From an uncultured Spirochaetaceae bacterium (GTDB lineage: Bacteria > Spirochaetota > Spirochaetia > SZUA-6 > RPPD01): a DNA stretch of 64,000 nucleotides. The position numbers were made by a program, and so were the translations under genes. This document shows positions 529-63,308 of the stretch, one piece after another. Positions within the stretch are counted from its first letter, which is position 1. Each line of letters opens with the position of its first letter. The stretch spans positions 5,701-69,700 of the forward strand of contig CAZEPL010000008.1 in assembly GCA_964514135.1 (NCBI GenBank), written 5' to 3'. The notes beneath the pieces were generated by a model. That model searched no databases. It was not told the DNA's origin and saw only the letters and a program-made list of their open reading frames with translations.

Positions 529-556
529 TTGACAGAAAATCTTTTGGGAATAAAAT
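529..556 (+). promoter_or_regulatory. sigma-70-type promoter for the mraZ/dcw operon (TTGACA-N16-TAAAAT)
   Basis: TTGACA at 529-534, a 16-nt spacer, then TAAAAT at 551-556, about 40 nt upstream of mraZ. Confidence 0.5.
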
Positions 557-565
557 GATGGATAT

Positions 566-600
566 GTGGGAAAAAGTGGGATATTTTAGTAGAATGTGGT
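566..600 (+). promoter_or_regulatory. Direct GTGGG repeats at 10-bp periodicity (MraZ-box-like operator)
   Basis: GTGGG at 566-570 and 576-580, and GTGGT at 596-600, directly downstream of the putative -10 and overlapping the mraZ start. MraZ is known to bind spaced TGGGN repeats. Confidence 0.45.
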
Positions 601-610
601 AGGAGTATGG

Positions 611-2039: not shown

Positions 2040-2308
2040 TATTTAAAAGATTTCTTATGCTCATTTTTGTCTGTACCATACCGGTTGTACTTTTTTTCAG
2101 CAGTGTTCAGGCTTATGATTATGTAAAGCTTAGGAATGAAATTGAAGAACTGGAAGCCCGGCAGAAAGAATGGATAGAAAAGAATAAGAAGCTTATCGCC
2201 AGTATTGAGGTTTTAAGGACGCCAAAACGTATAGAAAAAATTGCCCGGGATGATCTGGGGCTGAAGAAGATCGATAAGGAGCGGATACGAAAAGTGGTCT
2301 TTGAATAA
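2030..2308 (+). CDS. ftsL: Cell division protein FtsL-like (septum formation initiator family)
   Basis: 92 aa with an N-terminal TM helix followed by a coiled coil (EIEELEARQKEWIEKNKKL). Position between rsmH and the mur genes. Confidence 0.7.
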   Translation: MCMIFKRFLMLIFVCTIPVVLFFSSVQAYDYVKLRNEIEELEARQKEWIEKNKKLIASIEVLRTPKRIEKIARDDLGLKKIDKERIRKVVFE

Positions 2309-3728: not shown

Positions 3729-3757
3729 CATTGTCTTTAAGAAAGGGAGGGGGTGCA

Positions 3758-4897: not shown

Positions 4898-4909
4898 AAG
4901 AATGAGGCA

Positions 4910-8073: not shown

Positions 8074-8118
8074 GATTTATAAAATTTTGATATAAACAAC
8101 ATATTTCGGGAGGGGAGT

Positions 8119-9276
8119 ATGACAATCGAAATGCTTGATGATGAATTATCAAGCCCTACAATTATAAAAGTAATTGGCGTGGGCGGTGGGGGAAATAATG
8201 CATTAAACCGCATGATTTCAGCAGGACTGAACCATGTACAGTTTATTGCCGTAAATACGGATGTTCAGGCACTGCAGACTTCAAAGGCGGAAATTAAAAT
8301 ACCGATAGGTTCTAAACTCACGGGCGGACTCGGCGCCGGCGGTATTCCGGAAATCGGTGAAAAAGCCGCATTGGAAAATCAAGAAGAAATAAAACAGGCC
8401 TTAAAAGGCTCGGACATGCTGTTTATCACGGCAGGCATGGGCGGAGGTACGGGTACCGGTGCGGCACCGATTATGGCACATATTGCCAGAGAACTCAATA
8501 TCTTAACGGTAGCTGTTGTAACAAAACCGTTTGATTTTGAAGGCCGTAAAAAAATGGTGCTTGCCGAACAAGGTCTCAAGCGTCTGCGGGAAGCCGTAGA
8601 TACACTTATTGTAATTCCAAACCAGTATCTGCTCAAAATCGTTGAAAAACGTACACCGATTAAAGAAGCCTTTTTTATGGCAGACGATGTACTGCGTCAG
8701 GGTGTACAGGGTATTTCCGATCTCATCACCGTTCCGGGAGAGATAAATATTGATTTTGCCGATGTAAAAACCATAATGAATGGCCGCGGCGATGCCATGA
8801 TGGGTGTTGGTGTCGGGCATGGTGATAATCGTGCTGTGGATGCAGCCACACAGGCTATCAATAACCCTCTGCTGGAAGACTCGAGTATTGAAGGAGCCAA
8901 GGGTGTGCTGGTTAATGTAAGCGGCGGAGAAGATCTTTCGCTCACCGAGTATGAGGAGATCGTAAAGATAATCACTGCCAATGCGGATGAGGATGCACTC
9001 ATTATAGCCGGGAATGCAGTGGATAACTCGTTAAGCGATCAGATTAAGGTTACGGTAATTGCTACGGGATTTAACAAAAGTATTCCTCACCTGAAAAAAG
9101 AGGTCATACCGGAAAATGAATCCGAGATAATTTCTTATAATGAGTGGATTGCTATGAGTAAAGGCATAAGCAATAAATCCCAAAATGATTATCTGTTAGG
9201 CAGGAATTCCAAAGAGACCGAACTGTGGGTGCCTACGATCTTACGAAATAAAAGAGCAATGGGGCAAAATGAGTAA
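8119..9276 (+). CDS. ftsZ: Cell division GTPase FtsZ
   Basis: GVGGGGNNA tubulin signature and T7 loop ([15 protein letters not shown]). C-terminal variable tail. Confidence 0.97.
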
Positions 9277-10169
9277 TGAAAGCTCTAACTGAAAAAATAT
9301 TACAGCAGTTCGAAGAGTACATGCATGTGGAGATGAGATTAGCCGCGCGCAGTATAAGTACCTATCTTACGGAATGCCGTATGTTTTTAGCGTACATTAA
9401 CAAGATGAATAAAGTACTAAGTGATACAACTGCTGTAGATATTATAGAATACTTAGTTGCTCGTCAGATTGACGGTCTCGATCAACGGACAATATCTAAG
9501 ATATTGAGCAGCCTGAGGGCTTTTTATAAATATTGTATGTTAGAAGAACTTCACAAGACAAATCCTGCCATACTCGTGGAAACGCCGCGCATTCCTAAAA
9601 AATTACCCGCTGTGTTTTCTAAAGAAGAGGTTGATAGATTCTTGGCTGCTATTGACGACACTACCCCTTTAGGCTTGAGGGATCGTGCTTTGTTTGAATT
9701 AATCTATTCCTGTGGTTTGCGTGTTTCTGAGGCTGTGAATTTGAAGATTGAAGAACTATATTTAAAAGAAGGCATTATAAAAGTATTGGGCAAAGGCGGG
9801 AAAGAACGCCTGGTGCCGATTGGTGAACACGCGACATATTGGCTTATCCAATATTTAAGCAGAGCCCGGTCTAAAATAGCCGGAAACAAAATAAGGCAGA
9901 ACTTTGTTTTCTTAAATAGATGGGGCAAAAAGCTGTCGAGAAAAGGCATGTGGAAGCGCTTTAAGGAGATCGCAGATCTCTCAGGAATTGAAGGTAAAAT
10001 ACATACGCTCCGGCATTCTTTTGCCACTCATATGCTTAAAGGGGGAGCGGATTTGCGCTCGGTTCAGGAGCTTTTAGGCCATGCCGATATCGGTACAACT
10101 CAGATTTATACGCACTTGGAAAAAGAGGATTTACATAACTATCATAAACGCTATCATCCCAGGGGATGA
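9276..10169 (+). CDS. xerC: Tyrosine site-specific recombinase XerC/XerD family
   Basis: The R..H..R..Y catalytic set is identifiable (RHSFATHML...LGHADIGTTQIYTHL). The start overlaps the ftsZ stop as taATG. Confidence 0.85.
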   Translation: MKALTEKILQQFEEYMHVEMRLAARSISTYLTECRMFLAYINKMNKVLSDTTAVDIIEYLVARQIDGLDQRTISKILSSLRAFYKYCMLEELHKTNPAILVETPRIPKKLPAVFSKEEVDRFLAAIDDTTPLGLRDRALFELIYSCGLRVSEAVNLKIEELYLKEGIIKVLGKGGKERLVPIGEHATYWLIQYLSRARSKIAGNKIRQNFVFLNRWGKKLSRKGMWKRFKEIADLSGIEGKIHTLRHSFATHMLKGGADLRSVQELLGHADIGTTQIYTHLEKEDLHNYHKRYHPRG

Positions 10170-10208
10170 TGCTTTAGAATATTATTTGGAGGTTTTAAAG
10201 AAAGCAAA

Positions 10209-11084
10209 ATGATGAAAAATCATGGATTGGTTTTATTTTTGTGTTGCCTGCTTGTTGTGGTCGGTATATGTATAGAGAGCTGCAGACCGCGCAGTGAGGA
10301 GGAAAATATTTTAGAGACCTTAGCTCAGATGAATGATTTTACTTATAAAGGAAAACCGGTACCGCGGGAGACCATTGAAGAATTAAAAAGTACAATTCTC
10401 TTGTTTGAAGAAAAAATTGAAGATGCGGTAAAAGTAACAGGCGAATTAGGGCTGTATTATAAGATGTTGGCAAAAAGATATTTGGAGATCGAAGAGCTGA
10501 AAGAAAAGATTGCAGAATTAAAGCAGCGGCAGCAGGAACAGGAGCAGGACACTCCTGAAACGGAGGGGGGGTACCGTAATATATTAATTGTAAAATACGT
10601 AAAAGAGAAAATGCTGTATAAAGCTTTGGAAAACTTACATCTGGCCATTGAAATCAATCCGGAAAACCCTATTCTGTTTTATTTGGCCGGAAACTGTGCG
10701 GCTCGTGTTGCCAAATCTATGGTGAGCGGGAATCAGCGTATTGAACGGGATCGTAATTTTTCCGAGGCTTATGCCTATTATAAACGGGCGATTGAGCTCG
10801 ACCCGGGTTATGTTGATGCACTGAAAGGACTGTCGGTCTTATTAATCTTTGAGCTCGGGCGGGCAACAGAAGCTGAAAGTTATATCCAACGTATTTTAGA
10901 AAAAGAAAAGCGCAATACCGAAGCCATGGCACTCTTAGCCAGAGTATATTTTGAACAAGACAGGTTCGAGGATGCTAAAGAGCTGTATGAGAATATTGTG
11001 GCGGAGAGTTCGGATAAAGAGATGGTGGAGGAAGCGAACAAGAATATTCAATATATAAAGGATATTGTAGGTGAGTTATACTAA
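10209..11084 (+). CDS. TPR-repeat protein with N-terminal signal peptide (probable lipoprotein)
   Basis: Hydrophobic leader with a Cys (LVVVGICIESC). Coiled-coil and TPR-like repeats (YYKRAIELDPGYVDALKGL...). Confidence 0.6.
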   Translation: MMKNHGLVLFLCCLLVVVGICIESCRPRSEEENILETLAQMNDFTYKGKPVPRETIEELKSTILLFEEKIEDAVKVTGELGLYYKMLAKRYLEIEELKEKIAELKQRQQEQEQDTPETEGGYRNILIVKYVKEKMLYKALENLHLAIEINPENPILFYLAGNCAARVAKSMVSGNQRIERDRNFSEAYAYYKRAIELDPGYVDALKGLSVLLIFELGRATEAESYIQRILEKEKRNTEAMALLARVYFEQDRFEDAKELYENIVAESSDKEMVEEANKNIQYIKDIVGELY

Positions 11085-12096
11085 CGAACTTTTATTTTTA
11101 GCCATTAACAGAGTCCCGTTTTTCAAAGCCCGCGATAAATTATTGCTGGCGGAAGTGGTTTCTTCGGTTTCTGAATTTTCAAGATTTTCTAAAGCTGATA
11201 TCAGCCGCTGTTTAGGTCGGGTAGTACGGGATGGACGGTGGGAACCCCAAGTTTATCTTAAATTCGCAGAATGTGATAGAAAATACTTGACGAAAGCACA
11301 TATTAAATACACTTTTTACAGTGAAGATAATTATCCGAAGCAGTTGAGAGAGATATACGATCCGCCGCTGGTTCTGTATTATCGGGGTAATGATTTTAAA
11401 CTAAAGCAGCCGCTTGTGGCTGTAGTGGGAACCAGAAGACCAACCGGTGATGCTCTCATGCGGGCTTATGCCTTAGGTGTGGAAATGAGCGCGTGCCATG
11501 TCGGAGTAATTTCAGGGCTGGCAAAAGGAATTGATACTGCGGTACATTCAGGCTGTGTATCTGTTGGCGGATATGGAATCGCCGTAATGGGGAACGGAAT
11601 TGATATGGTCTATCCTGCGTCGAGTAAAGGTACGGCTCATAAATTGTTAGACAGTGGAGGTACCCTGGTAAGCGAGTATCCTCCCGGAATGAGCCCGTGT
11701 AAATACCATTTTCCTGAGCGAAATCGCATAATAAGTGGTTTGGCTCAGGCTGTTGTTGTTGTGCAAGCTCCCAAAAAATCGGGAGCCCTGATAACCGCGG
11801 ATTTTGCATTGGAACAGGGTAGAGAGCTTTATATTCATAAAGTAGGTCTTAAGGATATATATGGTGAAGGTACGACCATGCTGCATGAGCAGGGAGCGGT
11901 TGCCATAGATAGTGCCTACACTGTTATAAAAGAATTAAGGGGTGGAAAGATGATGAACAGTGTGCCTAGTGATAACAGAAAGATAGATAGACATAAAACG
12001 GGTGGCAAGCCGGGTCATGAACTCGCGGATCTGCTTGAACTTGAAATCAATAAAAAAGTATCTGTTTATAACGGAGAATACTACTGGAGTGAATAG
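11071..12096 (+). CDS. dprA: DNA processing protein DprA (Smf)
   Basis: GTG start. Rossmann-like DprA core (VAVVGTRRPT...GLAKGIDTAVHSG...IAVMGNGIDMVYP). Confidence 0.88.
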   Translation: MSYTNELLFLAINRVPFFKARDKLLLAEVVSSVSEFSRFSKADISRCLGRVVRDGRWEPQVYLKFAECDRKYLTKAHIKYTFYSEDNYPKQLREIYDPPLVLYYRGNDFKLKQPLVAVVGTRRPTGDALMRAYALGVEMSACHVGVISGLAKGIDTAVHSGCVSVGGYGIAVMGNGIDMVYPASSKGTAHKLLDSGGTLVSEYPPGMSPCKYHFPERNRIISGLAQAVVVVQAPKKSGALITADFALEQGRELYIHKVGLKDIYGEGTTMLHEQGAVAIDSAYTVIKELRGGKMMNSVPSDNRKIDRHKTGGKPGHELADLLELEINKKVSVYNGEYYWSE

Positions 12097-14241
12097 ATGA
12101 AAGAGAACAAGAATATTTTATTAATAGTTGAATCACCTGCCAAAGCGCGTACCATAGAGAAGTATCTGGGTAAAGGCTATCAGGTTGAGGCTTCAATGGG
12201 ACATTTGATTGATCTGCCCAAATCACGGCTTGCAGTAGATGTTAAGCATAATTTTACTCCCGAATATATTACAGTACGCGGAAAAGCCAAGATTCTTAAA
12301 AACCTGATCCAGAAGGCCAAGCACACGGAAAAAATACTTCTTGCTTCCGATAATGACCGGGAAGGTGAGGCCATCTCATACCACATCAAAAATGCTATTT
12401 TAAAGAAGTATCCACAGCTTGAATTCGAGCGCATAGTGTTTAATGAAATCACACCATCGGCAATTCGTGAGGCAATCGGAACCTCTCGGGATATTGATCA
12501 GGACAAGGTTGCTGCCCAGAAAGCCAGACGTATTTTAGACAGGCTTGTCGGATATCATTTATCACCTATCCTTTGGGCAAAAGTTAAAAACGGACTATCT
12601 GCGGGAAGGGTGCAATCGGTAGCTTTACGTCTGCTGTGTGAAAGGGAAATAGAGGTTGAGAATTTTATTCCGGAAGAGTATTGGTCTTTACAGGTAAACC
12701 TTGAGAAAAAAAGCAAAAAAATTCTGGCACAGCTTGTAGAGTATAAAAAGCTGAAACCGGAGCTCAAGTTGCAAAAAGATGTAGAAGCGATAATCAAAGA
12801 GCTTAAAAACATTGAATTTACTGTAAAAGACATAAGACAGGTTGAAAAAGTCATAAAGCCGAAGGCTCCGTTCACCACATCCAAACTACAGCAGGCCGCA
12901 GCAACCCGATTAGGATTTACTTCACGAAAAACCATGCGCATAGCGCAGCAGCTCTATGAAGGTATAAATATCGGTAGCGAACATGTGGGATTGATTACGT
13001 ATATGCGTACCGATTCAACACGGATTGCAGGCAGTGCCCTTGGGCAGGTGCGTGATTTTATAAAGCAATATTATGCTCTGGAGCTGCCTCCGAAAGCGCT
13101 TTTTTATAGTGTAGCCAAAGGTGCAGAGGATGCTCATGAAGCTATCAGGCCTACTTATGTTGATAAGACCCCTGAATCTCTACGCTCAAGTTTAAGCAGC
13201 GAACAATTTAAACTGTATGCCATAATATGGGAGCAGTTTGTGGCGTCACAGATGAAACCGGCTAAATCTTCAACCATTTCTGTGGATTTTGAAGCCGGAG
13301 CTGCCGTGTTTAGATCCTCAAGTACAAAAATGATAGAGAAGGGTTTTCAAAAGGTTTTAAAGCAATTAGCATCAAAGGAGAAAAAAAACGTACTGCCCAA
13401 ACTTACTGTGGGTGAGAAGGTGGAATGCACCGGCTTCAAACCGGAACAGCATTTTACTTCGGGGCCTGCGCGCTATACCGATGCTTCAATTATAAAGACA
13501 CTTGAAGAAAATGGAATCGGGCGCCCCTCTACCTATGCGCCTATTATTTCAGTACTGCAGGATCGCTATTACATAGTAAGAAAGAATAAGCAGCTTGTTC
13601 CCACCACTCTGGGGAGAATTATCAATGACATTTTAATCAAATCCTTTCCTGACATTCTCAATGTGAATTTTACGGCAGAAATGGAGAGCAAGCTGGATAA
13701 AATAGAGGAGCATAGCCAGGAGTGGATAGCGATGCTCAAAGAGTTTTATCCGCCTTTTAAAATACAAGTTGATCATGTCATGGAGACATTGGAATCACTA
13801 AAGGGTGTACTGGATGAGGAAACCGATTACACTTGCGAAAAGTGCGGTAGGAAAATGATTAAAAAGCTGGGAAGATTCGGTTTTTTCCTTGCCTGCGGCG
13901 GTTTTCCCGAATGCAGAAACACAAAATCCGTACCGCTGGCCGATTGCCCTCGCGATAACTGTGATGGAAAAATTATTACACGCCGCAGACAGGGGGGAAG
14001 AGGAAGAGAATTTTACGGGTGCACCAATTATCCTGAATGTGATTTTATTTCACACTTTAAACCCATAAATCAGAGCTGTCCTAAGTGCGGCAAGTTTCTT
14101 GTTGAAAAAACCGATAAAAAGCGCGGTTCATACAAGTCATGCATTAATCCTCTGTGTAATTATTTGCATACAGCAGATGAATATGAGAATGGGAATAAAC
14201 AGTCAGCAATTTTAGATGAGGAGTCGCGTAACAGTGCTTAA
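12097..14241 (+). CDS. topA: DNA topoisomerase I with C-terminal zinc ribbons
   Basis: TOPRIM N-terminus (ILLIVESPAKARTIEKYLG). Active-site region. Three C4 zinc-ribbon repeats (CEKCGRKM..., CPRDNCDGK..., CPKCGKF...). Confidence 0.96.
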   Translation: MKENKNILLIVESPAKARTIEKYLGKGYQVEASMGHLIDLPKSRLAVDVKHNFTPEYITVRGKAKILKNLIQKAKHTEKILLASDNDREGEAISYHIKNAILKKYPQLEFERIVFNEITPSAIREAIGTSRDIDQDKVAAQKARRILDRLVGYHLSPILWAKVKNGLSAGRVQSVALRLLCEREIEVENFIPEEYWSLQVNLEKKSKKILAQLVEYKKLKPELKLQKDVEAIIKELKNIEFTVKDIRQVEKVIKPKAPFTTSKLQQAAATRLGFTSRKTMRIAQQLYEGINIGSEHVGLITYMRTDSTRIAGSALGQVRDFIKQYYALELPPKALFYSVAKGAEDAHEAIRPTYVDKTPESLRSSLSSEQFKLYAIIWEQFVASQMKPAKSSTISVDFEAGAAVFRSSSTKMIEKGFQKVLKQLASKEKKNVLPKLTVGEKVECTGFKPEQHFTSGPARYTDASIIKTLEENGIGRPSTYAPIISVLQDRYYIVRKNKQLVPTTLGRIINDILIKSFPDILNVNFTAEMESKLDKIEEHSQEWIAMLKEFYPPFKIQVDHVMETLESLKGVLDEETDYTCEKCGRKMIKKLGRFGFFLACGGFPECRNTKSVPLADCPRDNCDGKIITRRRQGGRGREFYGCTNYPECDFISHFKPINQSCPKCGKFLVEKTDKKRGSYKSCINPLCNYLHTADEYENGNKQSAILDEESRNSA

Positions 14242-15145
14242 AAAATATTTCGAGTACTTAAAGAGTGTAAGAAAGCTTTCTTTTAATACGATAAACTCAT
14301 ATAAACGAGATTTGGCACTGTTTATGGATTTCTTAAGTGACAATAAATGCAAAGAGGATGAGCTCAGTATGGGGCAGGTCCGAGCTTTTATTACTCTGCT
14401 ATCCAAAAAAAATCTTTCATCTCGATCTATTAACAGGACTATTTCTTCAATTAGAAGTTATTATAGATTTATGCAGCGTTATGAATTCTGTAATGCGAAT
14501 CCGTTTAAAGATATTAAATGCTTAAGGGTGGATAAATGGCTTCCTGTGTTTTTATTCGAAGAAGAGGTTCTTGAATTTTTAAACATACCTACACATGATT
14601 TTTTTAGCCTAAGAGATAAGTTGATTTTTGAATTTCTCTATTCAACAGGTTGCCGGGTCTCGGAAGTTGTCAGTTTGGATGTGATGGATATTAACCTGAA
14701 AGACCACTGTGTAAGAGTAAGGGGCAAGGGAAATAAGGAGCGTATAGTATATATTGGAAAAATGGCGCATAAAATCCTTATTGAATATATAAAGCGGCGC
14801 TCACATCATATACATAAAAATAGCATATCGGGAACTAATGCCCTTTTTATAAATAAAAGGGGTTTTCGCTTAAGTGCCAGAGGAATACGCTATGTGGTGT
14901 ACAAATATTTAAAACAAAGCGCCTGTCAAAAGAAGGTGAGTCCTCATACCTTCCGGCACACCTTTGCAACTCACCTGCTTAACCGGGGAGCTGATATCAG
15001 AGTTGTCCAGGAATTGTTGGGACACGCAAGCCTTTCGACCACGCAAGTGTATACTCATGTTGGTGTCGAGAAGCTGAAATCAATTTATCGCGAGAGTCAT
15101 CCTCATGCAAAGATGAAAAGTCAAGAAACGCAAGGAGAGAAATAA
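14216..15145 (+). CDS. xerD: Tyrosine site-specific recombinase XerD/CodV family
   Basis: RHTFATHLL...[15 protein letters not shown] catalytic motifs. Sits where B. subtilis has codV, after topA and before hslV. The start may be the GTG at 14234. Confidence 0.85.
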
Positions 15146-15147
15146 AC

Positions 15148-15681
15148 ATGGAACAGTTTCGTGGTACAACAATCCTCGCCGTACTCAAAGACGGTAAACT
15201 GGCGATCGGAGGAGATGGTCAGGTTACCTTAGCAAATACCGTAATGAAGGCCAATGCCCGGAAGGTACGCACCATTTATGAAGGGAAGATTCTGGTAGGC
15301 TTCGCTGGAGCCACGGCAGATGCTTTTACACTCTTTGAGCGCTTTGAAGTCAAAGTAAAGGAGTACGCGGGTGATCTTGCCCGTGCGGCCGTAGAGCTGG
15401 CCAAAGACTGGAGAACCGACAGGGTATTACGAAGATTGGAAGCTATGCTCTTGGTAGGCGATAACAAGAAAATACTCTTAATCTCAGGCACGGGCGATGT
15501 GGTTGAGCCTGAACTAGGAGTGGTTGGAATCGGCTCCGGCGGCAACTATGCCTATGCTGCAGCCTTAGCATATCTTGATTCTGCAAAACTGTCTGCAAAA
15601 GAAATTGTTGAAAAATCATTGAAAATCGCAGCTAGAATATGTATTTATACTAATGAAACAATTATGGTGGAGGAATTATAA
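15148..15681 (+). CDS. hslV: ATP-dependent protease subunit HslV (ClpQ)
   Basis: N-terminal TTIL after Met-Glu-Gln-Phe-Arg-Gly (Thr nucleophile). GGDGQ motif. Confidence 0.93.
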
Positions 15682-17060
15682 TGCAGATTGATACAGACAA
15701 GCTCACACCCAAAGAAATAGTGGCCGCATTAGATAAATATATTATCGGACAGGAAAAAGCAAAGCGGGCCGTGGCTATTGCACTTCGCAATAGATACCGC
15801 CGCACTAAACTGCCGGAAGAACTCAAAGACGAAGTGGCTCCTAAAAATATTATTATGATCGGCCCCACAGGTGTGGGAAAAACCGAAATTGCCCGTAGGC
15901 TTTCCAAGCTGACCGGTGCGCCGTTTATTAAGGTTGAGGCAACAAAATATACGGAAATAGGTTATGTGGGCCGGGATGTGGAATCAATGGTCAGAGATCT
16001 GGTTTCGGTGGCCATATCCATGGTGAAAGCGGAATTTCAAGAAAAGGTGGAAGAAGAAGCGGAAAAGCGGGCTGAAGAAGCTCTGCTGGATTTACTTTTA
16101 CCGGGGATGAATAAACCTGTAATCAAACCCGGAAAACAGCTTAACGCACCGGCGGAAACCGCTCCTGATCAGGGAATACAGTCCACAACACGCGAAAAAT
16201 TTAGAGAAAAATTACATAACGGTGAACTTGACGAAAAATTAGTGGAAGTAAACATAACTAAACAGGCTTTTCCCTCGGTAGAGATTTTTTCCGGTACAAG
16301 TTTTGAAGAGATGGGCATTAATATAGGTGGAAATCTTTCCAACCTGCTTGGTGGAGGAAAAAAGAAAAAACGGGTTACAGTCAAGCAGGCCAGGGAGATT
16401 CTTTTAGCAGAGGAAAGAGATAAGCTCATAGATATGGACAGGGTGTCCGAGATAGCTAAGGAGCGCACGGAACAGATGGGAATTATCTTTATCGATGAGC
16501 TGGATAAGATTGCCTCAAGCCATAGTAAAATCGGTGTTGATGTGTCGCGCGAAGGAGTACAGCGCGATATTCTGCCCATTGTTGAGGGATCCCAAGTGAA
16601 CACACGCTACGGCATCATCGATACTGCGCATATTCTCTTTATCGCGGCAGGCGCTTTCCATATGAGCAAACCCTCGGATCTGATACCCGAACTGCAGGGA
16701 CGGTTTCCGTTACGGGTGGAATTGAATGCCTTAACGAGCGAAGATTTTATTAAAATACTCACCCAGCCTAAAAATGCGCTTATTAAGCAGTATGTAGAAT
16801 TATTAAAAACGGAAGATGTCATACTGGAATTTAAAGCTGAAGCAATAGAACGGATTTCGGAGATCGCAACCGAGGTTAATACCAAAACGGAAAATATCGG
16901 TGCGCGGAGACTGCACACTATATTGGAAAATTTATTAGAGGAGGTTTCTTTTCACGCACCCGATTTAAAGGGCCAGACAATTAATATTACGAAAAAATAT
17001 GTAAATGACAAATTGAATGCTATTATCGAGGATCGAGATGTTACCCGGTATATACTGTAA
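15681..17060 (+). CDS. hslU: ATP-dependent protease ATPase subunit HslU (ClpY)
   Basis: Walker A (GPTGVGKTEIARRLS), intermediate I-domain, Walker B (IIFIDELDKIA). Confidence 0.95.
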   Translation: MQIDTDKLTPKEIVAALDKYIIGQEKAKRAVAIALRNRYRRTKLPEELKDEVAPKNIIMIGPTGVGKTEIARRLSKLTGAPFIKVEATKYTEIGYVGRDVESMVRDLVSVAISMVKAEFQEKVEEEAEKRAEEALLDLLLPGMNKPVIKPGKQLNAPAETAPDQGIQSTTREKFREKLHNGELDEKLVEVNITKQAFPSVEIFSGTSFEEMGINIGGNLSNLLGGGKKKKRVTVKQAREILLAEERDKLIDMDRVSEIAKERTEQMGIIFIDELDKIASSHSKIGVDVSREGVQRDILPIVEGSQVNTRYGIIDTAHILFIAAGAFHMSKPSDLIPELQGRFPLRVELNALTSEDFIKILTQPKNALIKQYVELLKTEDVILEFKAEAIERISEIATEVNTKTENIGARRLHTILENLLEEVSFHAPDLKGQTINITKKYVNDKLNAIIEDRDVTRYIL

Positions 17061-40326: not shown

Positions 40327-41166
40327 ATGATACGCTGGAATATAGCGGTATACTCAGGTTTAGGAGCTTTTTGTTTATCATTTATTATAGGAATATTGAG
40401 CGGGAATCCTTTTCTTGCTATTCTTTTTCGTGCTTTTATATTCGGTGTTATATTTGCAGGGATGGGAGCTGCGGGGAGCTTTATAATAAATAAGTTTTTA
40501 CCTGAAATATTTAATGCTGATTATAAACAGACAGCAGAAGCAACTAATAGTAAAAATGTTGATATCGTGCTTCCGGAAGAGAATCCTGTTTTAGGTGAAT
40601 CTTTATTTGAAGAAAAAGAAAAAAGTGGTGATGAGATTATTGAAGATGTTGACATGGCAGAAGAGCTGGAGACCGCAGAAGAGATTGAAGCAACTGATGG
40701 TATTGATGAGTATGAAGATGTTGATGCGGATGAGAATATAAATCAATATGAAGAGCCGGAAGAACAGGAAGAAGAAGTAACAGCAGAGGAAAAACTTGAA
40801 AACGGTTATGATAATATTGTCGTAGAAGAAATGGATCATGATAAAAATGAAAATATAGATGTAACGGATAAGACAAATCAAAAAAATCAGCTTCAGGAGC
40901 AGGCAGTTCAGGCTCCGGAAAGCGCTGAAGCAAGCTCTGAAAAAATAGCCGACGAAGAATTGGATGAGCTTCCGGATATGGGGGTATTGGAAAATTCATT
41001 TATGGTAATAAGCAGTGATGAGGGCTCAGAAAATAATCCTCTCGCCGGAGTAAAGTCACAACTTTCCGGTAAAATAACAAAAAAAGAAGATCCGGCGGTA
41101 TATGCACAAGCAGTGCGTACAATCATAAAAAGAGATGAGGAAGGACCAAAAAAATATGGCCGATGA
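40327..41166 (+). CDS. Hypothetical membrane protein: two N-terminal TM helices plus a long highly acidic (E/D-rich) low-complexity tail
   Basis: [24 protein letters not shown]...[24 protein letters not shown], then about 200 aa that are extremely E/D-rich. The 3' end overlaps the fliA start by 11 nt. Confidence 0.6.
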
Positions 41167-41944
41167 ACTTTTTAAAAAAAAGTCAGAGGAAGAGCTTTGG
41201 AGATCTTATAGAAAGAAAAAAGATCCCAAGATACGTGATTTCTTTGTTAAACAATATGCACCATTAGTAAAATATGTTGCAGGTAAAGTTGCCATAGGAA
41301 TGCCTCAAAATGTGGAGTTTGATGATCTGGTCGGTTATGGAGTATTCGGTTTGTTTGATGCGATAGAGAAATTCGATCCTGAAAAGCATGTAAAATTTAA
41401 GACATATGCCGTAACGCGAATTCGTGGATCTATCTTTGATGAATTGAGATCTATCGACTGGGTTCCCAGATCAGTAAGGCAAAAGACGAGAGAAGTAGAA
41501 GATACAATTTCTCACTTAGAAGGACAATTAGGAAGATCTGCTTCTGATAATGAAATTGCAAAGGCCTTAAATCTTACTATAGACGATTATCAAAATCTTA
41601 TGCTTAAAATCAGTGGTACCTCAATAATGTCGATTCATGATGTCTGGTATACCGGAGAGGATAATGATAAAATATCCATTGCAGAAAGCATAGAATCACC
41701 CTCAAGTCTTAATCCTGATACGATTGTAGAAAAAAACGAAATTAAGCGTGTTATTATTGAAGTTATTAATGAGCTTCCGGAAAAAGAGAAAAAAGTTCTT
41801 GTCCTTTACTATTATGAAGACTTAACTTTAAAGGAGATAGGTGAAGTACTCGATGTAACCGAATCGAGAGTATCACAGTTGCATACTAAGGCGATATTGC
41901 GCTTAAGAGCAAAACTTACGAGCTTAAAGAAGGGTATAATGTAA
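41156..41944 (+). CDS. fliA: Flagellar RNA polymerase sigma factor FliA (sigma-28/WhiG family)
   Basis: Region 2 ([37 protein letters not shown]). Region 4 HTH ([25 protein letters not shown]). Confidence 0.92.
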
Positions 41945-41945
41945 A

Positions 41946-43895
41946 GTGATTAAAATAGATCAATTAAGAAAATATATGAAAACACTCTATGAAAAAGATA
42001 AAAAAAATAAAACCATACATGCAAAAGGAAAAACTTTAGACGATGCATTACGCGAAGCGGCTATTCAATTGGGATTACCAATAAAAAAGATAGAGTATGA
42101 AATTATCAAAAGAGGTACTAAAAAAGTACTCGGTATGGGCGGCGGAGAATGGGAACTTGTTGCTTATGCTGCAGCAGAAGACCTGGATGCAAAAGATATA
42201 TTTGAAGAAGAGATTGCTTTTGATATGAATCTCAAATCAGAATATCTTGAGAAGGCTAAAAATAAAGACGGCAAAATAAGTGTCCGCCTGCAGCCGGACG
42301 GTGTCTTTTTAAAAGTAAACAAACCTATAGGCAGCGGGAAAAAAGCAAATATTGCAGCTGCTAAAAATATAATTATGAAAAGAAATATCACAAGTTATGA
42401 CGAAGCGCTTGTCGATAAAGTTGTACGCTATGCAGACGATAAGTATGTTAAAATTGCCAATTTTGAATACAATCCCGGTCAAGATCCCGTTCTTTCGGTG
42501 AGTATTGCAGATATGGAGATGAAAGCTTTTTTACTTTTACAGGCACCGGGACCTGGTGGTGCAGATTTAGCCGCGGAAACAATAAAGGGTTATCTAAACA
42601 ATAATAGAGTTGTTTTCGGAATTAAAGAAGAGGTGCTAAGGAGTTTGCAAGAAAATCCTGTTTATAATGAAGAAATCCTGGTTGCCGAAGGTCAGAAACA
42701 AGCCAACGGAAACGATGCAAAACTAGTTTATAATTTCAAGACTGATCATACGACTATTATTTTTAAGGAAAAAAACGGTCGTGTGGATTTTAAGGACCTT
42801 AATTTAATTGAGAATGTAGTTGCCGGTCAGCAGTTGGCAAAAAAAGTACCGCCGGAACGCGGCAAAGAAGGACAGACAGTTACGGGAAAAACATTACCTG
42901 CAAAGCCCGGTAAAGATAGTACAATCGGAGTGGGAAAAAATGTAAAACTCTCGGAAGATGGAACGACAGTAATATCGGAAATCAACGGTCAGGTAATCCT
43001 CCTTAATGGAAAATTAAACGTAGAGCCCGTATACACAGTCCCGGGAGATGTAAATCTTCATACCGGTAATATTTTATTCTTGGGTACGGTTATAGTACGC
43101 GGAAATGTTGAAGACGGATTTTCAGTAAAAGCTGCGGGAAATATAGAGGTAATGGGGAATATCGGAAAAGCAATGCTTGATGCGGAAGGAGATATTATTG
43201 TACACCAAGGTATACTGGGCAAGAATGAAGGTAAAGTAAAATGTGGAAAAAATATATATGCAAAATTTATTGAGCATGCTTATGTTGAGGCAGAGAATAA
43301 TGTAATTGTAACCGATGGAATACTGCATTCATATGTCGATTCAAATAAAAAAATAATCTGTCAAGGAAGAAGAGCTTCGATTGTTGGAGGGAGACTACGG
43401 GCAGCAGAAGAAATTAATGCCAAAAACCTAGGATCGGTTGCAGGTGCTGAGACTATTTTAGAAGTAGGATATGATCCGAAAAGTAAGAAAAGACTCATAG
43501 AACTGCAGTCACAGAATGAGATATTAAGTAAAGAATTGGAAGAAATCGAGAGAAATGTAAACACATTAGAGAATCTAAAGAAGGTACAAAAAACACTACC
43601 GGAAGAAAAAGAGAAATATCTTATAGAACTCAATGAAAAGCGTATGAAAATATTATCGGAAATGAAAGAGATAAAGAACCAGATTGATGAAATAAAACAT
43701 CACCTCGCATCGCTTAAAGTGAAAGGTAAAATATCAGCCTCTGAAAGAGTATTCCCCGGAGTGAAGATATATCTTAAAGATGTTATGGATAAAGTTCGTG
43801 TAGAACAAAAATCGGTTACCTATATATTAGAGGGTAAGCGTATAAGGATGACAAAATATGAGCCTGTAGAAGGAGAATACTTGAGGAAAAGATAA
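41946..43895 (+). CDS. FapA/DUF342-family protein (Jag-N-like N-terminal domain, beta-helical repeat core, C-terminal coiled coil)
   Basis: GTG start 2 nt after the fliA stop. N-terminal KTLDDALREAAIQLGLPIKKIEYEII (Jag_N-like). Repetitive GN-rich beta-solenoid segment (GNILFLGTVIVRGNVEDGFSVKAAGNIEVMGNIG...). Coiled-coil tail. Confidence 0.65.
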   Translation: MIKIDQLRKYMKTLYEKDKKNKTIHAKGKTLDDALREAAIQLGLPIKKIEYEIIKRGTKKVLGMGGGEWELVAYAAAEDLDAKDIFEEEIAFDMNLKSEYLEKAKNKDGKISVRLQPDGVFLKVNKPIGSGKKANIAAAKNIIMKRNITSYDEALVDKVVRYADDKYVKIANFEYNPGQDPVLSVSIADMEMKAFLLLQAPGPGGADLAAETIKGYLNNNRVVFGIKEEVLRSLQENPVYNEEILVAEGQKQANGNDAKLVYNFKTDHTTIIFKEKNGRVDFKDLNLIENVVAGQQLAKKVPPERGKEGQTVTGKTLPAKPGKDSTIGVGKNVKLSEDGTTVISEINGQVILLNGKLNVEPVYTVPGDVNLHTGNILFLGTVIVRGNVEDGFSVKAAGNIEVMGNIGKAMLDAEGDIIVHQGILGKNEGKVKCGKNIYAKFIEHAYVEAENNVIVTDGILHSYVDSNKKIICQGRRASIVGGRLRAAEEINAKNLGSVAGAETILEVGYDPKSKKRLIELQSQNEILSKELEEIERNVNTLENLKKVQKTLPEEKEKYLIELNEKRMKILSEMKEIKNQIDEIKHHLASLKVKGKISASERVFPGVKIYLKDVMDKVRVEQKSVTYILEGKRIRMTKYEPVEGEYLRKR

Positions 43896-44216
43896 ATGTC
43901 TATTCTGCCCATTGACCTCCAGATTCTTTTCTCTCAGATGAATCAAGTGGGAAAAGAGCAGGCCATACAGAAAGATGGCAATGCAATTCATCAGTCACTT
44001 CAGGGGATGGAGCTGGTAAAAAATACCGAGCAGAAAGATAGTTCTGTAAATCAAAGTAAAGATATCGGCGAAGGCTTAGAAAAAATAAAGAATGAAGAAA
44101 ACAAAAAGAAGGAAGAGCGGGAAAGAGAAAAAAATGAAAAAAAAGAACAAGCAGAGCATAAAAAAACAGTATTTGCAGATCCTGATTTAGGTAAGCATAT
44201 TGATATAATGGGATAA
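43896..44216 (+). CDS. Hypothetical small K/E-rich protein
   Basis: 106 aa. ATG directly abuts the FapA stop. Highly charged (NEENKKKEEREREKNEKKEQAEHKK). No recognisable motif. Confidence 0.45.
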   Translation: MSILPIDLQILFSQMNQVGKEQAIQKDGNAIHQSLQGMELVKNTEQKDSSVNQSKDIGEGLEKIKNEENKKKEEREREKNEKKEQAEHKKTVFADPDLGKHIDIMG

Positions 44217-49527: not shown

Positions 49528-49770
49528 ATGGAAAAAGCTGTTGCTCTTAAATACACCCGTGAACTTCCTGCTCCGTTCATCATAGCTAAAGGGAAAGGCG
49601 ATCTTGCACGCAAAATCAGGACAATAGCGGATGCTAATGGAATATCCATTGTAGAAAATCATATGTTAACTGAAGGACTTATTGAATTGGAATTGGGATC
49701 TTTAATACCAGAAGAGTATTATGAAATAATCGCAAAAATATTTGTCTTTGTAGCACAATTTGGAGTGTAA
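49528..49770 (+). CDS. Stand-alone FlhB C-terminal-domain homolog (YlqH/FhlB-like)
   Basis: 80 aa. [48 protein letters not shown]...[16 protein letters not shown] aligns with FlhB after the NPTH site. Compare this window's own FlhB (AVALEWERLIMAAPTLVAKGADMIAHKIKEIALENEVPVVENKPLAQALY...IPEKYYEVIATILAEIY). Confidence 0.85.
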
Positions 49771-56597: not shown

Positions 56598-56632
56598 AAA
56601 AAAAGGCGGCCAAAGATGCAAGGCCGCCTTTT
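56598..56632. terminator. Bidirectional rho-independent terminator between flaB (3' end) and cca
   Basis: AAAAAAA-GGCGGCC-N10-GGCCGCC-TTTT. GC-rich 7-bp stem with an A-run on one side and a T-run on the other. Confidence 0.7.
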
Positions 56633-56642
56633 ATAGTGAAGT

Positions 56643-57515
56643 TTATCTAAACAACTGGAGTACAGATTGAGGTTTGGTATTTGCCTGTGCCAGCATGGCG
56701 GTAGCAGACTGTACCAAGATCTGGTTTTTCACGAAACTAACCATCTGCTCTGCCATATCTGCATCCCTAATGCGGGATTCAGCTGCCTGCATGTTTTCCG
56801 CTCCTGTTAACAGACCAAAAACAGCGTACTCCATTCTGTTTTGAGAAGCACCGAGATCGGCACGCTGCTTGCTGACCTTTTTTAAGGCCTCATCAATGAC
56901 TCCGATCGAGCGGTTTGCACTGTCGGGAGTTTCCAGCGAGAGAAAAGTAGCATCATGCGGATATCCGTCGGCTCCTTGAATTCCCAATCCTTGAGCAGTC
57001 ATGGTGCCAATGAATACTCTTTCTCTTTGATCCATATTTGCACCGATGTGAAACCACATACTACCTGTAATTGAATTTTCACCGGTAAATCTGGCGAAGC
57101 GGCCGGTGAGAAAGTTCATACCGTTAAACTGAGCATGAGACGCAATACGGTTCACTTCATCGACAAGCTGTGAGACCTCTACCTGAATCTGCATACGGTC
57201 TTCATCCGAATAGATTCCGTTTGAGGCCTGAATAGCCAACTCGCGCAAGCGCTGCAGGATATCCTGTGATTCCTGTAAATAACCTTCAGCTACCTGGATA
57301 AAAGAAATACCGTCTTCCGCATTCATGGCTGCTCTGTTTAAACCGCGTATTTGTGAGCGCATCTTTTCAGATACGGCTAAACCGGATGCGTCATCACCAG
57401 CTCTGGTTATTCGTAAGCCAGAGGAAAGTTTCTCCATATCTTTGTCTAATCCTATGCCATTGGATTTTAAGTGCCGAAATGCAAACATGGCACTTAGGTT
57501 GTGGTTAATAATCAT
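56643..57515 (-). CDS. flaB: Flagellar filament core flagellin FlaB
   Basis: [20 protein letters not shown]...[34 protein letters not shown]-terminus and conserved C-terminal helices ([16 protein letters not shown]). Spirochete FlaB length of 290 aa. Confidence 0.95.
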
Positions 57516-57560
57516 ACAATCCTCCTTGATTGTTTTACCTGGACATCCTTGTCCAGTATG
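57516..57560 (-). promoter_or_regulatory. flaB 5' leader with two CsrA-type binding sites (hairpin-loop ACAAGGAUGU, and AAGGAGGA at the SD)
   Basis: Minus-strand mRNA: ...CUGGACA-AGGA-UGUCCAG..(17 nt)..AAGGAGGAUU-AUG. 7-bp perfect stem with GGA in the loop. ACAAGGAUGU matches the CsrA SELEX consensus RUACARGGAUGU. Confidence 0.5.
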
Positions 57561-57570
57561 CCTACTTAGA

Positions 57571-57597
57571 TGGTCGGAAAATAAATAAACTGCTTTA
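57571..57597 (-). promoter_or_regulatory. Candidate sigma-28-type promoter for flaB (TAAA-N15-TCCGACCA)
   Basis: Minus strand: TAAA (57597-57594), a 15-nt spacer, TCCGACCA (57578-57571). Compare the sigma-D consensus TAAA-N15-GCCGATAT and the sibling element upstream of flgB. Confidence 0.4.
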
Positions 57598-57710
57598 GCT
57601 TTTAATCTTAGAGTTAATAAATATACATATGGGATAAAAATTGTATAGTTGTTTATTTATGCATTATGTGGTAAACTAATAATAATTTTGGCGTAATGCG
57701 GATGTAGGGT

Positions 57711-59507
57711 GTGAGCAAAAAATCAACGCTTCGTGAATTATCGAGCAATCTCACAGAAAAAGAACGAAAAGAGTTGCTTGAGAAAATATATAACAGTCAA
57801 AAGAATGAAGAGCAGGAATATATTGTTCCCATAGAGCTTGAAGAAGATGAACGGCGCAGAATAATTCACTCTGAAATCAGGCAGTTAAAATGGTGGAAAA
57901 AATTTATTCTCTGGCTGCAGACCTTGTTGAGTGGAAAGGATAAAGAAAAGCTTTTCCTTTCTATGAAGATTACTGAGCTTAAAAAAACTATTAGATGCAT
58001 TAATCCGGGATTAACAGGATTTGAAACGCGTGATTTAACGATTAAATTTGCCCAACATATCTATGATATATACTGTACTGCATTTCCACTCATTCATTTT
58101 TATTACAATTTTACCGGGAAACCAGATTTTAAAGATAAATTAATAATTCGCTTAATTGATGAGAGTAATCCTCACGCTAAAAAGAATATAAAAGATTTTT
58201 TTAATATCGATGAAATGGAGGAGATATATGCAGCTTCCGGAAGAGAGAAATTGGAAAAAATACTCTATAAACGGGTCGATGATTATTTAAAAGCAATTCC
58301 GGTTAAGATATTTAATAAAGTGGAAGCAGAAATAAAACCTATTTTCTCATTAAAAAACATTGTTCTTTTTCACTATCGCGAAATATTTAATTTTTTTAGT
58401 TACCTGCTGCCGTCTGAAATGCTCGATAAAAAATATCCGTTTTTTAAGAGCGCACCGGCACTCATAATTATTGATCATCTGGAAAGACTGTACTACGCTC
58501 TATTTTTTGCCTTATCCAATCTGGAGAGTGGTTTTGTGATAAGTGATGAATTGTTATGGTGCGCAGTGCTGCTACAGAATAATTTAGGCATTGATGTACA
58601 TATTGAAGAAGATAACAATCTCTATTCAAGACTTGAACAGGAGAAGTCGTTATTACAAAATCACTTTTTAGCACTGATTTCGGAAGTAACCAAGTTTAAT
58701 GCAGTTGTACCGCTTTTAGATCTTATTAAGTATTTTAGGAAGGATCCGTACTACCGTCTTAAATTTTATCTGCCGACTCTTCCTATAAAAACCATTTATT
58801 TTAAAGCATGCAAGTTAAAATTAGAAAAACAGCTAAACGATAAAATAATGCTTATTAAAGAGAGAGTTATTAATAGAAAAATAATGGAATTATTTAGTGA
58901 TAAGGATATAATCCCTTTGCGTTATTATACAGAAGAAAGAGAAGAAATATTCACTAAACTGGGATTAGCGTATTTTTCTAAAATCAAATCACTTACCCTG
59001 CTTTATAATTATATTAAAAAAGTATACCGAGTTGTTATACAGGATATCCTTCAGGTAATAAATGATTACTTTTTTGCTCATAATAAACGTAATCAACATA
59101 AACTACTTAATTTTGCTTCCACACTGGAAGAGCTTGAAGATAAAATATTACATTTCGATAAAGCACTATCACCTGAAGAAGAGGATGGCAAAGCGCTTAT
59201 GAGACTGAGATACAATATAGCGACAGACCTTACTCATCAAAAATTATATAGGAACATTGTATCTGAAAAAGATAAAGATGCGAGTGATCTGGTAGAAAAA
59301 GGCGTAGAATGTCTTACAGGAATAAATGAAATATTTGATGAGATACTTCATAATCCCATAGAGAGTGTAAAATTCACACTGAAAACATTGCAGACCTATA
59401 AAACAAAGAATTATACAATGGAACAGCTTTTACAAACTGTTATTAATAGTGTTACTGACTTCTTGGCTGTTTTTCATCAAGTAGTAGAAATGGAGAAGGG
59501 AAAGTGA
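57711..59507 (+). CDS. Hypothetical protein (598 aa, predominantly alpha-helical, no recognisable motif)
   Basis: Long ORF with a GTG start, divergent from flaB. Codon usage matches its neighbours. No motifs recognised. Confidence 0.5.
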   Translation: MSKKSTLRELSSNLTEKERKELLEKIYNSQKNEEQEYIVPIELEEDERRRIIHSEIRQLKWWKKFILWLQTLLSGKDKEKLFLSMKITELKKTIRCINPGLTGFETRDLTIKFAQHIYDIYCTAFPLIHFYYNFTGKPDFKDKLIIRLIDESNPHAKKNIKDFFNIDEMEEIYAASGREKLEKILYKRVDDYLKAIPVKIFNKVEAEIKPIFSLKNIVLFHYREIFNFFSYLLPSEMLDKKYPFFKSAPALIIIDHLERLYYALFFALSNLESGFVISDELLWCAVLLQNNLGIDVHIEEDNNLYSRLEQEKSLLQNHFLALISEVTKFNAVVPLLDLIKYFRKDPYYRLKFYLPTLPIKTIYFKACKLKLEKQLNDKIMLIKERVINRKIMELFSDKDIIPLRYYTEEREEIFTKLGLAYFSKIKSLTLLYNYIKKVYRVVIQDILQVINDYFFAHNKRNQHKLLNFASTLEELEDKILHFDKALSPEEEDGKALMRLRYNIATDLTHQKLYRNIVSEKDKDASDLVEKGVECLTGINEIFDEILHNPIESVKFTLKTLQTYKTKNYTMEQLLQTVINSVTDFLAVFHQVVEMEKGK

Positions 59508-62276: not shown

Positions 62277-63308
62277 GTGGATAAGATAAAAGAAGTAAAG
62301 AAAACAGATTTAGTCCGCTTAGAAAGAACAGAAGTTAAAATATGGAAGAACAGTTTTGCACAGAGCCCTATTCCTGTCCTCATTCTTAATAAACATTTAC
62401 GAATTATTTGGGTTAATAATAAGTTTTCACATCTTTTTGGCGATAACACAAACGTCTTAGGCTTACCTATTGAAAAATTTTATTTTTCTTCTCTTGATGA
62501 AAGCAAAATAAAAGAACTCCGCAAGAATATCTATTCAGCCCATTATGGGTTTAGCTGGACAGGTAAGGTTGAGAAAAAAGGAGTAAAGCAGTTTTCGGTA
62601 ATTACTAATCTCCTCATTTTACCGATTATTAATTCACTCAGTCAGGGTGCAAAACCAACTGCTTATGCTTGTATTTTAGATAATATAAGTGATGAATATA
62701 AGCAGATGCTTAAAAGCACTTTCTTAAGTTTACTTGAGGCCTCTCGTTTAAAGGATAATGATACGGGAAATCATATTGAACGTGTTAATCGCTATGCCAG
62801 ATGTATGACTGAAAAACTGCATGGTGATGAGCGGTACCCTTTGGTTGATAGAGAGTTTATAGAAGATATTGGTTTTTTAGCAGCGTTGCATGATGTGGGA
62901 AAAATAGGAACTCCGGATGACATATTAAACAAAAAAAATCAACTGCATGATTGGGAATGGAATATTATGAAAGAGCATACAATTAATGGTGCGTATATTT
63001 TAAGTACATATCCGAATCCCATGGAAAAAGAGATTGCACTATATCATCATGAAAAATGGGATGGCTCCGGATATCCTTATGGTTTAAGAGAAGAGATGAT
63101 TCCGCTTTCTGCCAGAATCGTAGCTATCGGAGATGTATATGATGCCTTGAGGATGCAGAGGAGTTGTAAAGATCCGATGGGGCACAAACAGGCTTTGGAA
63201 CTTATTCAAAAAGGCATAGGTACGCATTTTGAACCAAAACTTATAGATTATTTCCTCTATTTAGAAAAAGATTTCCAACATATATTTACAAAACTCCGCG
63301 ATGAATAA
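62277..63308 (+). CDS. HD-GYP domain protein with N-terminal PAS-like sensor region
   Basis: HD motif (LAALHDVGKIGTPDDIL) and GYP motif (HHEKWDGSGYPYGL). About 150 aa of N-terminal sensor-like domain. Confidence 0.85.
   Translation: MDKIKEVKKTDLVRLERTEVKIWKNSFAQSPIPVLILNKHLRIIWVNNKFSHLFGDNTNVLGLPIEKFYFSSLDESKIKELRKNIYSAHYGFSWTGKVEKKGVKQFSVITNLLILPIINSLSQGAKPTAYACILDNISDEYKQMLKSTFLSLLEASRLKDNDTGNHIERVNRYARCMTEKLHGDERYPLVDREFIEDIGFLAALHDVGKIGTPDDILNKKNQLHDWEWNIMKEHTINGAYILSTYPNPMEKEIALYHHEKWDGSGYPYGLREEMIPLSARIVAIGDVYDALRMQRSCKDPMGHKQALELIQKGIGTHFEPKLIDYFLYLEKDFQHIFTKLRDE

Follow-up and report, generated by a model that had tools for sequence, protein, structure and literature searches.

A two-hairpin flaB leader predicted to place flagellin under CsrA-type control in an uncultured spirochete

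A predicted CsrA-type switch at the flaB leader

Our analysis revealed evidence for translational control of flagellin synthesis in an uncultured Spirochaetaceae bacterium that has been seen in several sediment-type metagenomes. The DNA under study, 64 kb of contig CAZEPL010000008.1 and called the window in the following, encodes on its minus strand the gene flaB (56643-57515) for a 290-aa flagellin core protein with Flagellin_N and Flagellin_C domains and the canonical flagellin start MIINHN. The leader of this gene very likely constitutes a CsrA-type control element with two hairpins under a sigma-28 promoter, of the kind known from the Hag/FliW/CsrA switch. A first-pass annotation made from the letters of the window had proposed CsrA/FliW control of flaB together with sigma-28-dependent transcription, an interpretation that the comparisons reported here support.

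In the mechanism that we propose, sigma-28 RNA polymerase would transcribe flaB as a monocistronic message whose leader of about 51 nt would fold into two hairpins. The first, stem-loop 1 (SL1), would present A-AGGA-U on a stem of 6-7 bp, and the second (SL2) would have a hexaloop presenting A-AGGA-G, this loop and the 3′ arm together forming the Shine-Dalgarno sequence. One CsrA dimer could bridge both GGA loops, 23 nt apart, simultaneously, and the bound protein would occlude the Shine-Dalgarno sequence, block the 30S subunit and repress FlaB translation. FliW would bind CsrA, free the flaB mRNA and thereby lift repression, and unsecreted cytoplasmic FlaB would in turn sequester FliW. With FliW held by cytoplasmic FlaB, synthesis of FlaB would therefore be tied to its export, as in the partner switch of Hag, FliW and CsrA. 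This mechanism has been established in Bacillus subtilis (PMC7652899), Campylobacter jejuni (PMC4894983) and Borrelia burgdorferi (PMC12327847).

Two GGA hairpins in the flaB leader

SL1 (57539-57556, minus strand) reads CUGGACA-AGGA-UGUCCAG and consists of a 7-bp stem and a 4-nt AGGA loop with the GGA at 57548-57546; it is a predicted high-affinity CsrA site. [quoted passage not shown] Both statements proved accurate: the segment GGACAAGGAUGU agrees with the consensus RUACARGGAUGU (PMC7652899) at 11/12 positions, and in the minimum-free-energy hairpin the loop contains the GGA. A linker GTAAA (57538-57534, minus) separates SL1 from SL2 (57516-57533, minus), which reads ACAAUC-AAGGAG-GAUUGU with its GGA at 57525-57523 and is predicted to act both as the second CsrA site and as the ribosome-binding site. 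SL2 encloses the Shine-Dalgarno sequence AAGGAGGA (57527-57520, minus) and pairs its 3′ part, and the flaB start codon follows at 57515-57513. That a second GGA lies in the Shine-Dalgarno sequence had been noticed before, and this held; the hairpin around that GGA had been overlooked. The site, CAAGGAGG at 57528-57521, which overlaps the Shine-Dalgarno sequence, occupies the SL2 hexaloop 10 nt upstream of the AUG. Both GGA sites fit CANGGANG, a high-affinity hexaloop motif for CsrA (PMC4894983), and the distance from GGA to GGA is 23 nt in the window. CsrA dimers can bridge sites 10-63 nt apart, with an optimum of about 18 nt (PMC7652899).

Folded alone, SL1 has a minimum free energy of -10.5 kcal/mol (z = -3.9) and SL2 one of -5.2 kcal/mol (z = -6.8). 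The predicted 54-nt 5′ untranslated region (5′UTR) reaches -15.7 kcal/mol (z = -4.0; 1/200 shuffles fold as well), and its centroid structure consists of exactly SL1 and SL2. An arbitrary 81-nt slice was unexceptional in folding energy (z = -0.89), and the significance of the leader therefore comes mainly from comparative data. When both strands of the window were scanned for CANGGANG hairpins, SL1 and SL2 were the only ones found; a shuffled window is expected to hold 1.05 such hairpins with a stem of at least 4 bp and 0.135 when the stems have to match the length of those of SL1 and SL2. Rfam covariance models gave zero matches at their gathering thresholds across the whole window, and at E ≤ 10 the leader yielded only SAM-II at 13.4 bits against a cutoff of 44, which is noise. 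A role of SL1 as terminator or attenuator was rejected since no U-run lies behind it.

Conservation and covariation among spirochete leaders

A scan with one genome per species yielded 80 Spirochaetota flaB loci, including Marispirochaeta, Sediminispirochaeta, Alkalispirochaeta, Treponema and many metagenome-assembled genomes, with FlaB proteins 72-80% identical to that of the window. About 90 flaB leaders were compared, and the related loci hold 94 flagellin leaders altogether. The core CA-NGGA-NG occurs in 80 of these 94, most of the others carrying a one-nucleotide variant, and CANGGAGG adjoins the ATG in 90/94. Over 78 leaders the two GGA triplets lie a median of 24 nt apart (interquartile range 23-26 nt). 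Hairpins with an NGGA tetraloop and a stem of at least 6 bp were found in 45/94 flaB leaders as compared to 6/464 control upstream regions. This strict tetraloop definition under-counted hairpins because an A-C or A-A closing mismatch turns the loop into a hexaloop in many leaders, and CANGGANG was used as the hairpin anchor in its place.

In SL1 (75 distinct sequences) 77% of cells pair, and seven out of nine pairs show double changes. The covariation score of 0.469 compares to 0.07-0.20 with the 3′ partner slid along the alignment, and was reached by 0/500 shuffles, a count that is not to be taken as a probability. Whereas CG, AU, GC, UA and GU pairs replace one another in the outer stem, the sequence of the loop and the inner core, ACA-NGGA-(U/C/A)G, is fixed, and since G-U pairs are tolerated in the stem the structure acts at the RNA level. 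RNAalifold, applied to 73 whole leaders, recovered SL1 independently with compensatory changes in 5/6 pairs. The consensus from the same 73 leaders came out without SL2, which rests on an explicit pair-count test: its covariation score is 0.309, against 0.08-0.12 for slid controls, and again 0/500 shuffles reached it. The C-G closing pair is present in 82 of 83 anchored SL2 sequences, and the hexaloop C-A-NGGA-G-G is likewise kept in 82 of 83. The leader structure is thus conserved with compensatory changes in orthologous leaders, and the two-site arrangement put forward in the first-pass annotation gains weight from both sites fitting the CsrA motif at a distance of 23 nt and from compensatory changes in about 90 leaders.

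R1, a covariance model built on the whole leader, gave 85 matches with E < 1e-3 in 552 kb, every one of which ends at a flagellin start codon; the model matches its own training sequences by construction, and several of the matches come from outside the training set. The window contains a single match (57513-57561, 58.6 bits). These data bear on three alternative explanations of the hairpins. A chance similarity in an AT-rich intergenic region would accord with the unexceptional energy of the 81-nt slice and with the fact that any strong Shine-Dalgarno sequence contains a GGA. It is effectively refuted by the comparative data, given the covarying conservation in about 90 leaders and the excess of tetraloop hairpins over control regions, and given that SL1 and SL2 are the sole hairpins of their type in 64 kb; we see next to no probability left for it.

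In a second explanation CTGGACA-N4-TGTCCAG, which lies closely downstream of the promoter, would be a DNA operator bound by a dimeric transcription factor, and the perfect 7-bp palindrome at about +10 to +27 from the probable transcription start would suit such a protein. An operator would be expected to conserve its half-sites, yet their outer bases vary while staying complementary, and G-U pairs (G-T in DNA), present at several stem positions, keep an RNA helix intact and break DNA symmetry. Furthermore, the conserved bases are those of the asymmetric loop NGGA, and a second GGA hairpin overlaps the Shine-Dalgarno sequence at a fixed distance. On account of the G-U pairs and of complementarity without half-site conservation the operator was rejected, and we rate it as very improbable.

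The third explanation grants the RNA hairpins but has them act without CsrA, SL1 shielding the abundant flaB mRNA from 5′-dependent decay and SL2 tuning translation by partly sequestering the Shine-Dalgarno sequence. In those relatives with the shortest leaders SL1 lies only 2-10 nt from the probable 5′ end, SL1 is unusually stable at -10.5 kcal/mol, and SL2 does pair the 3′ part of the Shine-Dalgarno sequence, all of which favours such functions. A stabiliser, however, needs a stem alone, and here it is the loop with its closing bases, ACA-NGGA-(U/C/A)G, that is fixed whereas the stem sequence drifts; the Shine-Dalgarno hairpin likewise keeps its C-A-NGGA-G-G hexaloop, and the distance between the GGA triplets is constrained. 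A fixed loop, a kept hexaloop and a constrained spacing are properties of protein-binding sites and hence speak against hairpins that work as mere stabilisers. We consider this explanation improbable as a replacement for CsrA control, and stabilisation and tuning may well be added functions of the same hairpins.

Sigma-28 promoter and extent of the transcript

Upstream of the leader we identified a sigma-28-type promoter on the minus strand with a -35 element CTAAAG (57593-57598; TAAA at 57597-57594), a spacer of 15 nt (57592-57578) and a -10 element CCGACCAT (57570-57577) with an intact CCGA core. The whole promoter, CTAAAG-N15-CCGACCAT at 57598-57570, can equally be read as TAAA, 16 nt and CCGA at 57577, and is thus equivalent to the TAAA-N15-TCCGACCA of the first-pass annotation, every base of which is in its place. 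In comparison to the sigma-28 consensus TAAA-N15-GCCGATAA the -35 element matches at 4/4 positions and the spacing is correct. A simple promoter scan gave nothing informative on sigma-28. Alignment of the leaders on CCGA resulted in a lineage consensus CT(A/C)AAG-N14-nCCGA(A/C/T), which is carried by about 50 of 80 leaders. The strict pattern CT[AC]AAG-N14-15-CCGA was matched 36 times over 488 kb of related loci, 31 of these matches lying no more than 170 nt upstream of a flagellin ATG; in the window it has two matches versus 0.31 expected, one of them being the flaB promoter. The sigma-28-like promoter that had been suggested at first sight is accordingly conserved and specific to flaB upstream regions.

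The corresponding sigma factor is encoded in the window. The gene fliA (41135-41944, plus strand) lies at the end of an operon of the flgB type for motility, after flhA-flhF-flhG, and its product scores 426.8 bits with NF004935 (cutoff 343) and 292.6 bits with TIGR02479 FliA_WhiG (cutoff 189.6). The best explanation for these observations is that flaB is a late flagellar gene transcribed by sigma-28 RNA polymerase.

By the usual geometry of sigma-28 promoters, flaB transcription would start near 57566 (57564-57568, minus), 10 nt before SL1, giving a 5′UTR of about 51 nt. The -10 core precedes the SL1 core by 26 nt in the window and never by less than 18 nt across 50 leaders, which is just enough for SL1 to stay inside the transcript. 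At the other end of the gene we found a strong intrinsic terminator (56598-56630, minus) consisting of AAGGCGGCC and GGCCGCCUU around a 10-nt loop, with a GC-rich stem of 7-9 bp and a U-run (U7). An automatic terminator scan had overlooked it because of a loop limit of 8 nt. Since flaB has its own intrinsic terminator at its end, it is monocistronic.

The second match to the promoter pattern in the window, CTCAAG-N15-CCGATAGC at 63151 (minus), lies antisense in a PAS/HD-GYP-like gene (62277-63308, plus). With 0.31 matches expected per window it is probably due to chance, but it could also drive an antisense transcript.

csrA and fliW, and points against CsrA control

On every related spirochete contig that was examined for it, csrA occurs in the arrangement (flgN-)flgK-flgL-fliW-csrA. 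Leptospira, Borrelia and Treponema pallidum have the same fliW-csrA operon (PMC8668096), and Treponema denticola has flgN-flgK-flgL-fliW-csrA as well (PMC9481697). One contig, L185 (8.8 kb), carries fliW and csrA together with a leader of the type described here. Its flaB is 71% identical to that of the window and has the same two-hairpin leader (R1, 45.3 bits); besides this gene the contig contains a second flaB, flaG and fliD, and on the other strand flgL-fliW-csrA, with Pfam scores of 78.5 bits for CsrA and 138.8 bits for FliW. A profile built for spirochete CsrA found 7,595 clusters at E ≤ 1e-12, and the named ones among its top matches all belong to Spirochaetia, Spirochaetales, Treponema or Rectinemataceae. 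We infer that the source organism of the window has csrA and fliW.

Several points weigh against CsrA control of the flaB leader. Firstly, searches of the window and of 84 flaB loci (by regular expressions, and by phmmer/tblastn for CsrA) turned up neither csrA nor fliW, the roughly 6-7 kb adjoining the window on either side hold neither gene, and a profile search combined with twelve contig look-ups did not locate the source organism's own copy of csrA. Secondly, CsrA binding, repression and the FliW switch at this leader are what we infer, and the transcription start likewise follows from promoter geometry. Thirdly, the -10 element of the promoter has only 5/8 matches to GCCGATAA, with the CCGA core intact. 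Also, SL1 with its 7 bp and -10.5 kcal/mol is more stable than typical SELEX ligands, the stems of which are mostly no longer than 4 bp (PMC7652899). Finally, the anchored alignments render the GGA and the closing C-G pair invariant by construction, and the shuffle statistics overstate significance because the sequences are phylogenetically related, an effect that the slid controls and RNAalifold mitigate.

That csrA of the source organism was not located would also be consistent with recognition of the hairpins by a different RNA-binding protein or by a small RNA. We assign little probability to such a binder, since the SL1 motif is a near-perfect copy of an experimental CsrA ligand (11/12) and both sites conform to CANGGANG. 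In addition, csrA-fliW is ubiquitous in the lineage and shares a contig with an equivalent leader in L185, and three further spirochete genera have flaB leaders to which CsrA binds (PMC12327847, PMC8668096 and, going by the discussion of the source, PMC9481697). We therefore retain CsrA as the most probable ligand of both hairpins.

The other searches for csrA gave the following results. A word-indexed homologue search with B. burgdorferi CsrA as query reached Borreliaceae only. An exhaustive HMMER search for CsrA returned mostly tandem-CsrA fusions and one Spirochaetaceae CsrA, P0095. This protein as well as P0236, P0206, P0244, P0211, P0199, P0194, P0312 and P0276 were considered as products of the source organism's csrA and rejected, as they belong to other spirochetes or samples. 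A degenerate csrA DNA pattern run against metagenomes of the Joint Genome Institute hit 45 contigs, mostly from termite gut and none from Ga0307430, Ga0307431 or Ga0307438.

Two side observations concern csrA itself. The csrA loci L085, L118, L122, L131 and L185 show conserved synteny, in which flgN-flgK-flgL-fliW-csrA converges on a gene for an HD/HD_5 protein, beyond which follow TsaD, TsaE, a small open reading frame (ORF), PilZ, TP0873_N/DUF8042, fliD, flaG and one or more flagellin genes. The CsrA search further returned many proteins of 120-310 aa with tandem CsrA domains (P0042 and others) and one of 894 aa with 12 CsrA-like repeats, and multi-domain CsrA fusions appear to be common in metagenomes.

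Comparison with known flagellin leaders

The closest full analogue of the window leader is that of C. jejuni flaA (Dugar et al. 2016, PMC4894983), which combines a sigma-28 promoter with two GGA stem-loops and has almost the same architecture. Both genes have a short 5′UTR (45 nt in C. jejuni; about 51 nt predicted here) with two ANGGA/CANGGANG stem-loops, the second over the ribosome-binding site, both show similar GGA spacing (21 nt and 23 nt), and in both the leader structure is backed by compensatory changes (PMC4894983). In C. jejuni FliW antagonises CsrA and flaG is co-regulated (PMC4894983), and a similar flaG leader is present on the related locus L085. C. jejuni belongs to another phylum, however, and sequence homology is limited to the motif; SL1 of the window has a longer stem, and closure of the A-U pair makes its loop a tetraloop. 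For the C. jejuni leader, binding, activity as a sponge and localisation of the mRNA to the poles were demonstrated (PMC4894983), whereas the spirochete leader is known from its sequence.

In B. subtilis, hag is transcribed by sigma-D/sigma-28 and its leader, the predicted functional counterpart of the window leader, has two CsrA sites, one of which overlaps the Shine-Dalgarno sequence (Yakhnin 2007 and Mukherjee 2011, reviewed in PMC7652899); bound CsrA blocks ribosome binding and is antagonised by FliW (PMC7652899). B. subtilis differs in being a Firmicute with external flagella, in the window flaB the Shine-Dalgarno site is itself a conserved hairpin, and our comparison is again one of sequences.

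Within the same phylum, B. burgdorferi flaB encodes the orthologous flagellin. CsrA binds its 5′UTR and blocks translation (Sze 2011, cited in PMC12327847), csrA is immediately preceded by fliW, and for this CsrA/FliW/FliS circuit the partner switch has been demonstrated (PMC12327847). Borrelia has no sigma-28, so that its flaB is not transcribed by this factor (PMC11607428), in contrast to the window flaB with its conserved sigma-28 promoter and with fliA in the window. The likeness to both B. subtilis hag and B. burgdorferi flaB that the first-pass annotation had drawn needs one correction, in that the B. burgdorferi gene does not depend on sigma-28. Leptospira flaB3 and flaB4 have, 6-7 nt ahead of the start codon, a GGA hexaloop that overlaps the Shine-Dalgarno sequence and is the counterpart of SL2; CsrA binds in a GGA-dependent manner in electrophoretic mobility shift assays, and the csrA locus reads flgN-flgK-flgL-fliW-csrA (PMC8668096). 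One site with 4 mismatches to the consensus is described for the Leptospira leaders, and the outcome varies between Leptospira species (PMC8668096).

T. denticola is the closest studied relative and possesses FliA. Its flaB2 has a mapped sigma-28 promoter with -35 TTAA and -10 CCGATAA, and transcription starts 124 nt upstream, as compared to the roughly 51 nt predicted for the window (PMC9481697). For both flaB1 and flaB2 the discussion of the same source, and only the discussion, mentions CsrA sites close to the Shine-Dalgarno sequence, and its accessible text gives neither a structure nor an analysis of conservation (PMC9481697). Repression of flagellin by CsrA has thus experimental backing from B. 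burgdorferi (PMC12327847), Leptospira (PMC8668096), C. jejuni (PMC4894983) and B. subtilis (PMC7652899).

Against this background the window flaB is a well-supported new case of a known circuit for flagellin control, though an expected one that will not surprise a specialist, and the current understanding of how CsrA acts on flagellin is unchanged. The homeostasis circuit of flagellin, FliW and CsrA, so far shown in few cultured bacteria, would be extended to uncultured environmental Spirochaetales, where, in contrast to Borrelia, it would be coupled to sigma-28 transcription. The added value lies in a structural model for the whole class, with two covarying GGA hairpins at fixed spacing, and in a usable covariance model. 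From this leader model an RNA family could be curated, with which the regulation of flaB, and possibly of further CsrA targets such as flaG, could be annotated in spirochete genomes.

We also considered a wider hypothesis, for which we claim only a limited chance of being right: the leader might represent a distinct cis-regulatory RNA family, absent from Rfam and present in free-living and host-associated Spirochaetia, that additionally serves as a CsrA sponge for a small regulon and in which SL1 stabilises the mRNA. A sponge formed by the very abundant flaB leader, as in C. jejuni flaA, would coordinate such a regulon, given that relatives have a similar leader in front of their flaG-fliD operon.

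The flaG-fliD leader was observed on L085 (9954-10001, minus) and L086 (7368-7415, minus), where CCGGUAA-CGGA-UUACCGG is followed by the Shine-Dalgarno sequence CACGGAGG (R1, E = 0.012). Both contigs also carry fliW-csrA. The similarity suggests that spirochete CsrA could have flaG as its second target, in line with C. jejuni.

The flaB neighbourhood and the remainder of the window

Divergently from flaB the window encodes a DUF5312 protein of 598 aa (57711-59507, plus), the two start codons being separated by 195 nt. A DUF5312 homologue is found upstream of flaB in 40/80 related loci, and we therefore regard the pairing as conserved. Downstream of flaB a gene for a CCA-adding enzyme is present in 54/80. 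As these two neighbours recur, many of the related flaB loci are syntenic orthologues.

The motility operon to which fliA belongs is of the spirochete flgB type and extends over 17126-44216 on the plus strand, with flgB at 17126, fliF at 18437 and flhA at 36115, followed by flhF, flhG and fliA. After fliA comes a Jag_N-FapA protein (41946-43895, plus). Two ORFs of this operon, one of 279 aa (40327-41166, plus) and one of 106 aa (43896-44216, plus), flank fliA and FapA; both had zero matches to Pfam or NCBIfam families and may be lineage-specific flagellar proteins. A stand-alone protein of 80 aa resembling the C-terminus of FlhB is encoded at 49528-49770.

Upstream of the motility operon, gene assignments for window positions 1-17000 (plus) were taken from the matching locus L139. 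This part begins with subunits of a 2-oxoacid:ferredoxin oxidoreductase and continues with the division and cell wall cluster mraZ-rsmH-ftsL-mur-mraY-ftsW-ftsQ-ftsA-ftsZ, after which follow xerC/D-like, TPR and dprA genes.

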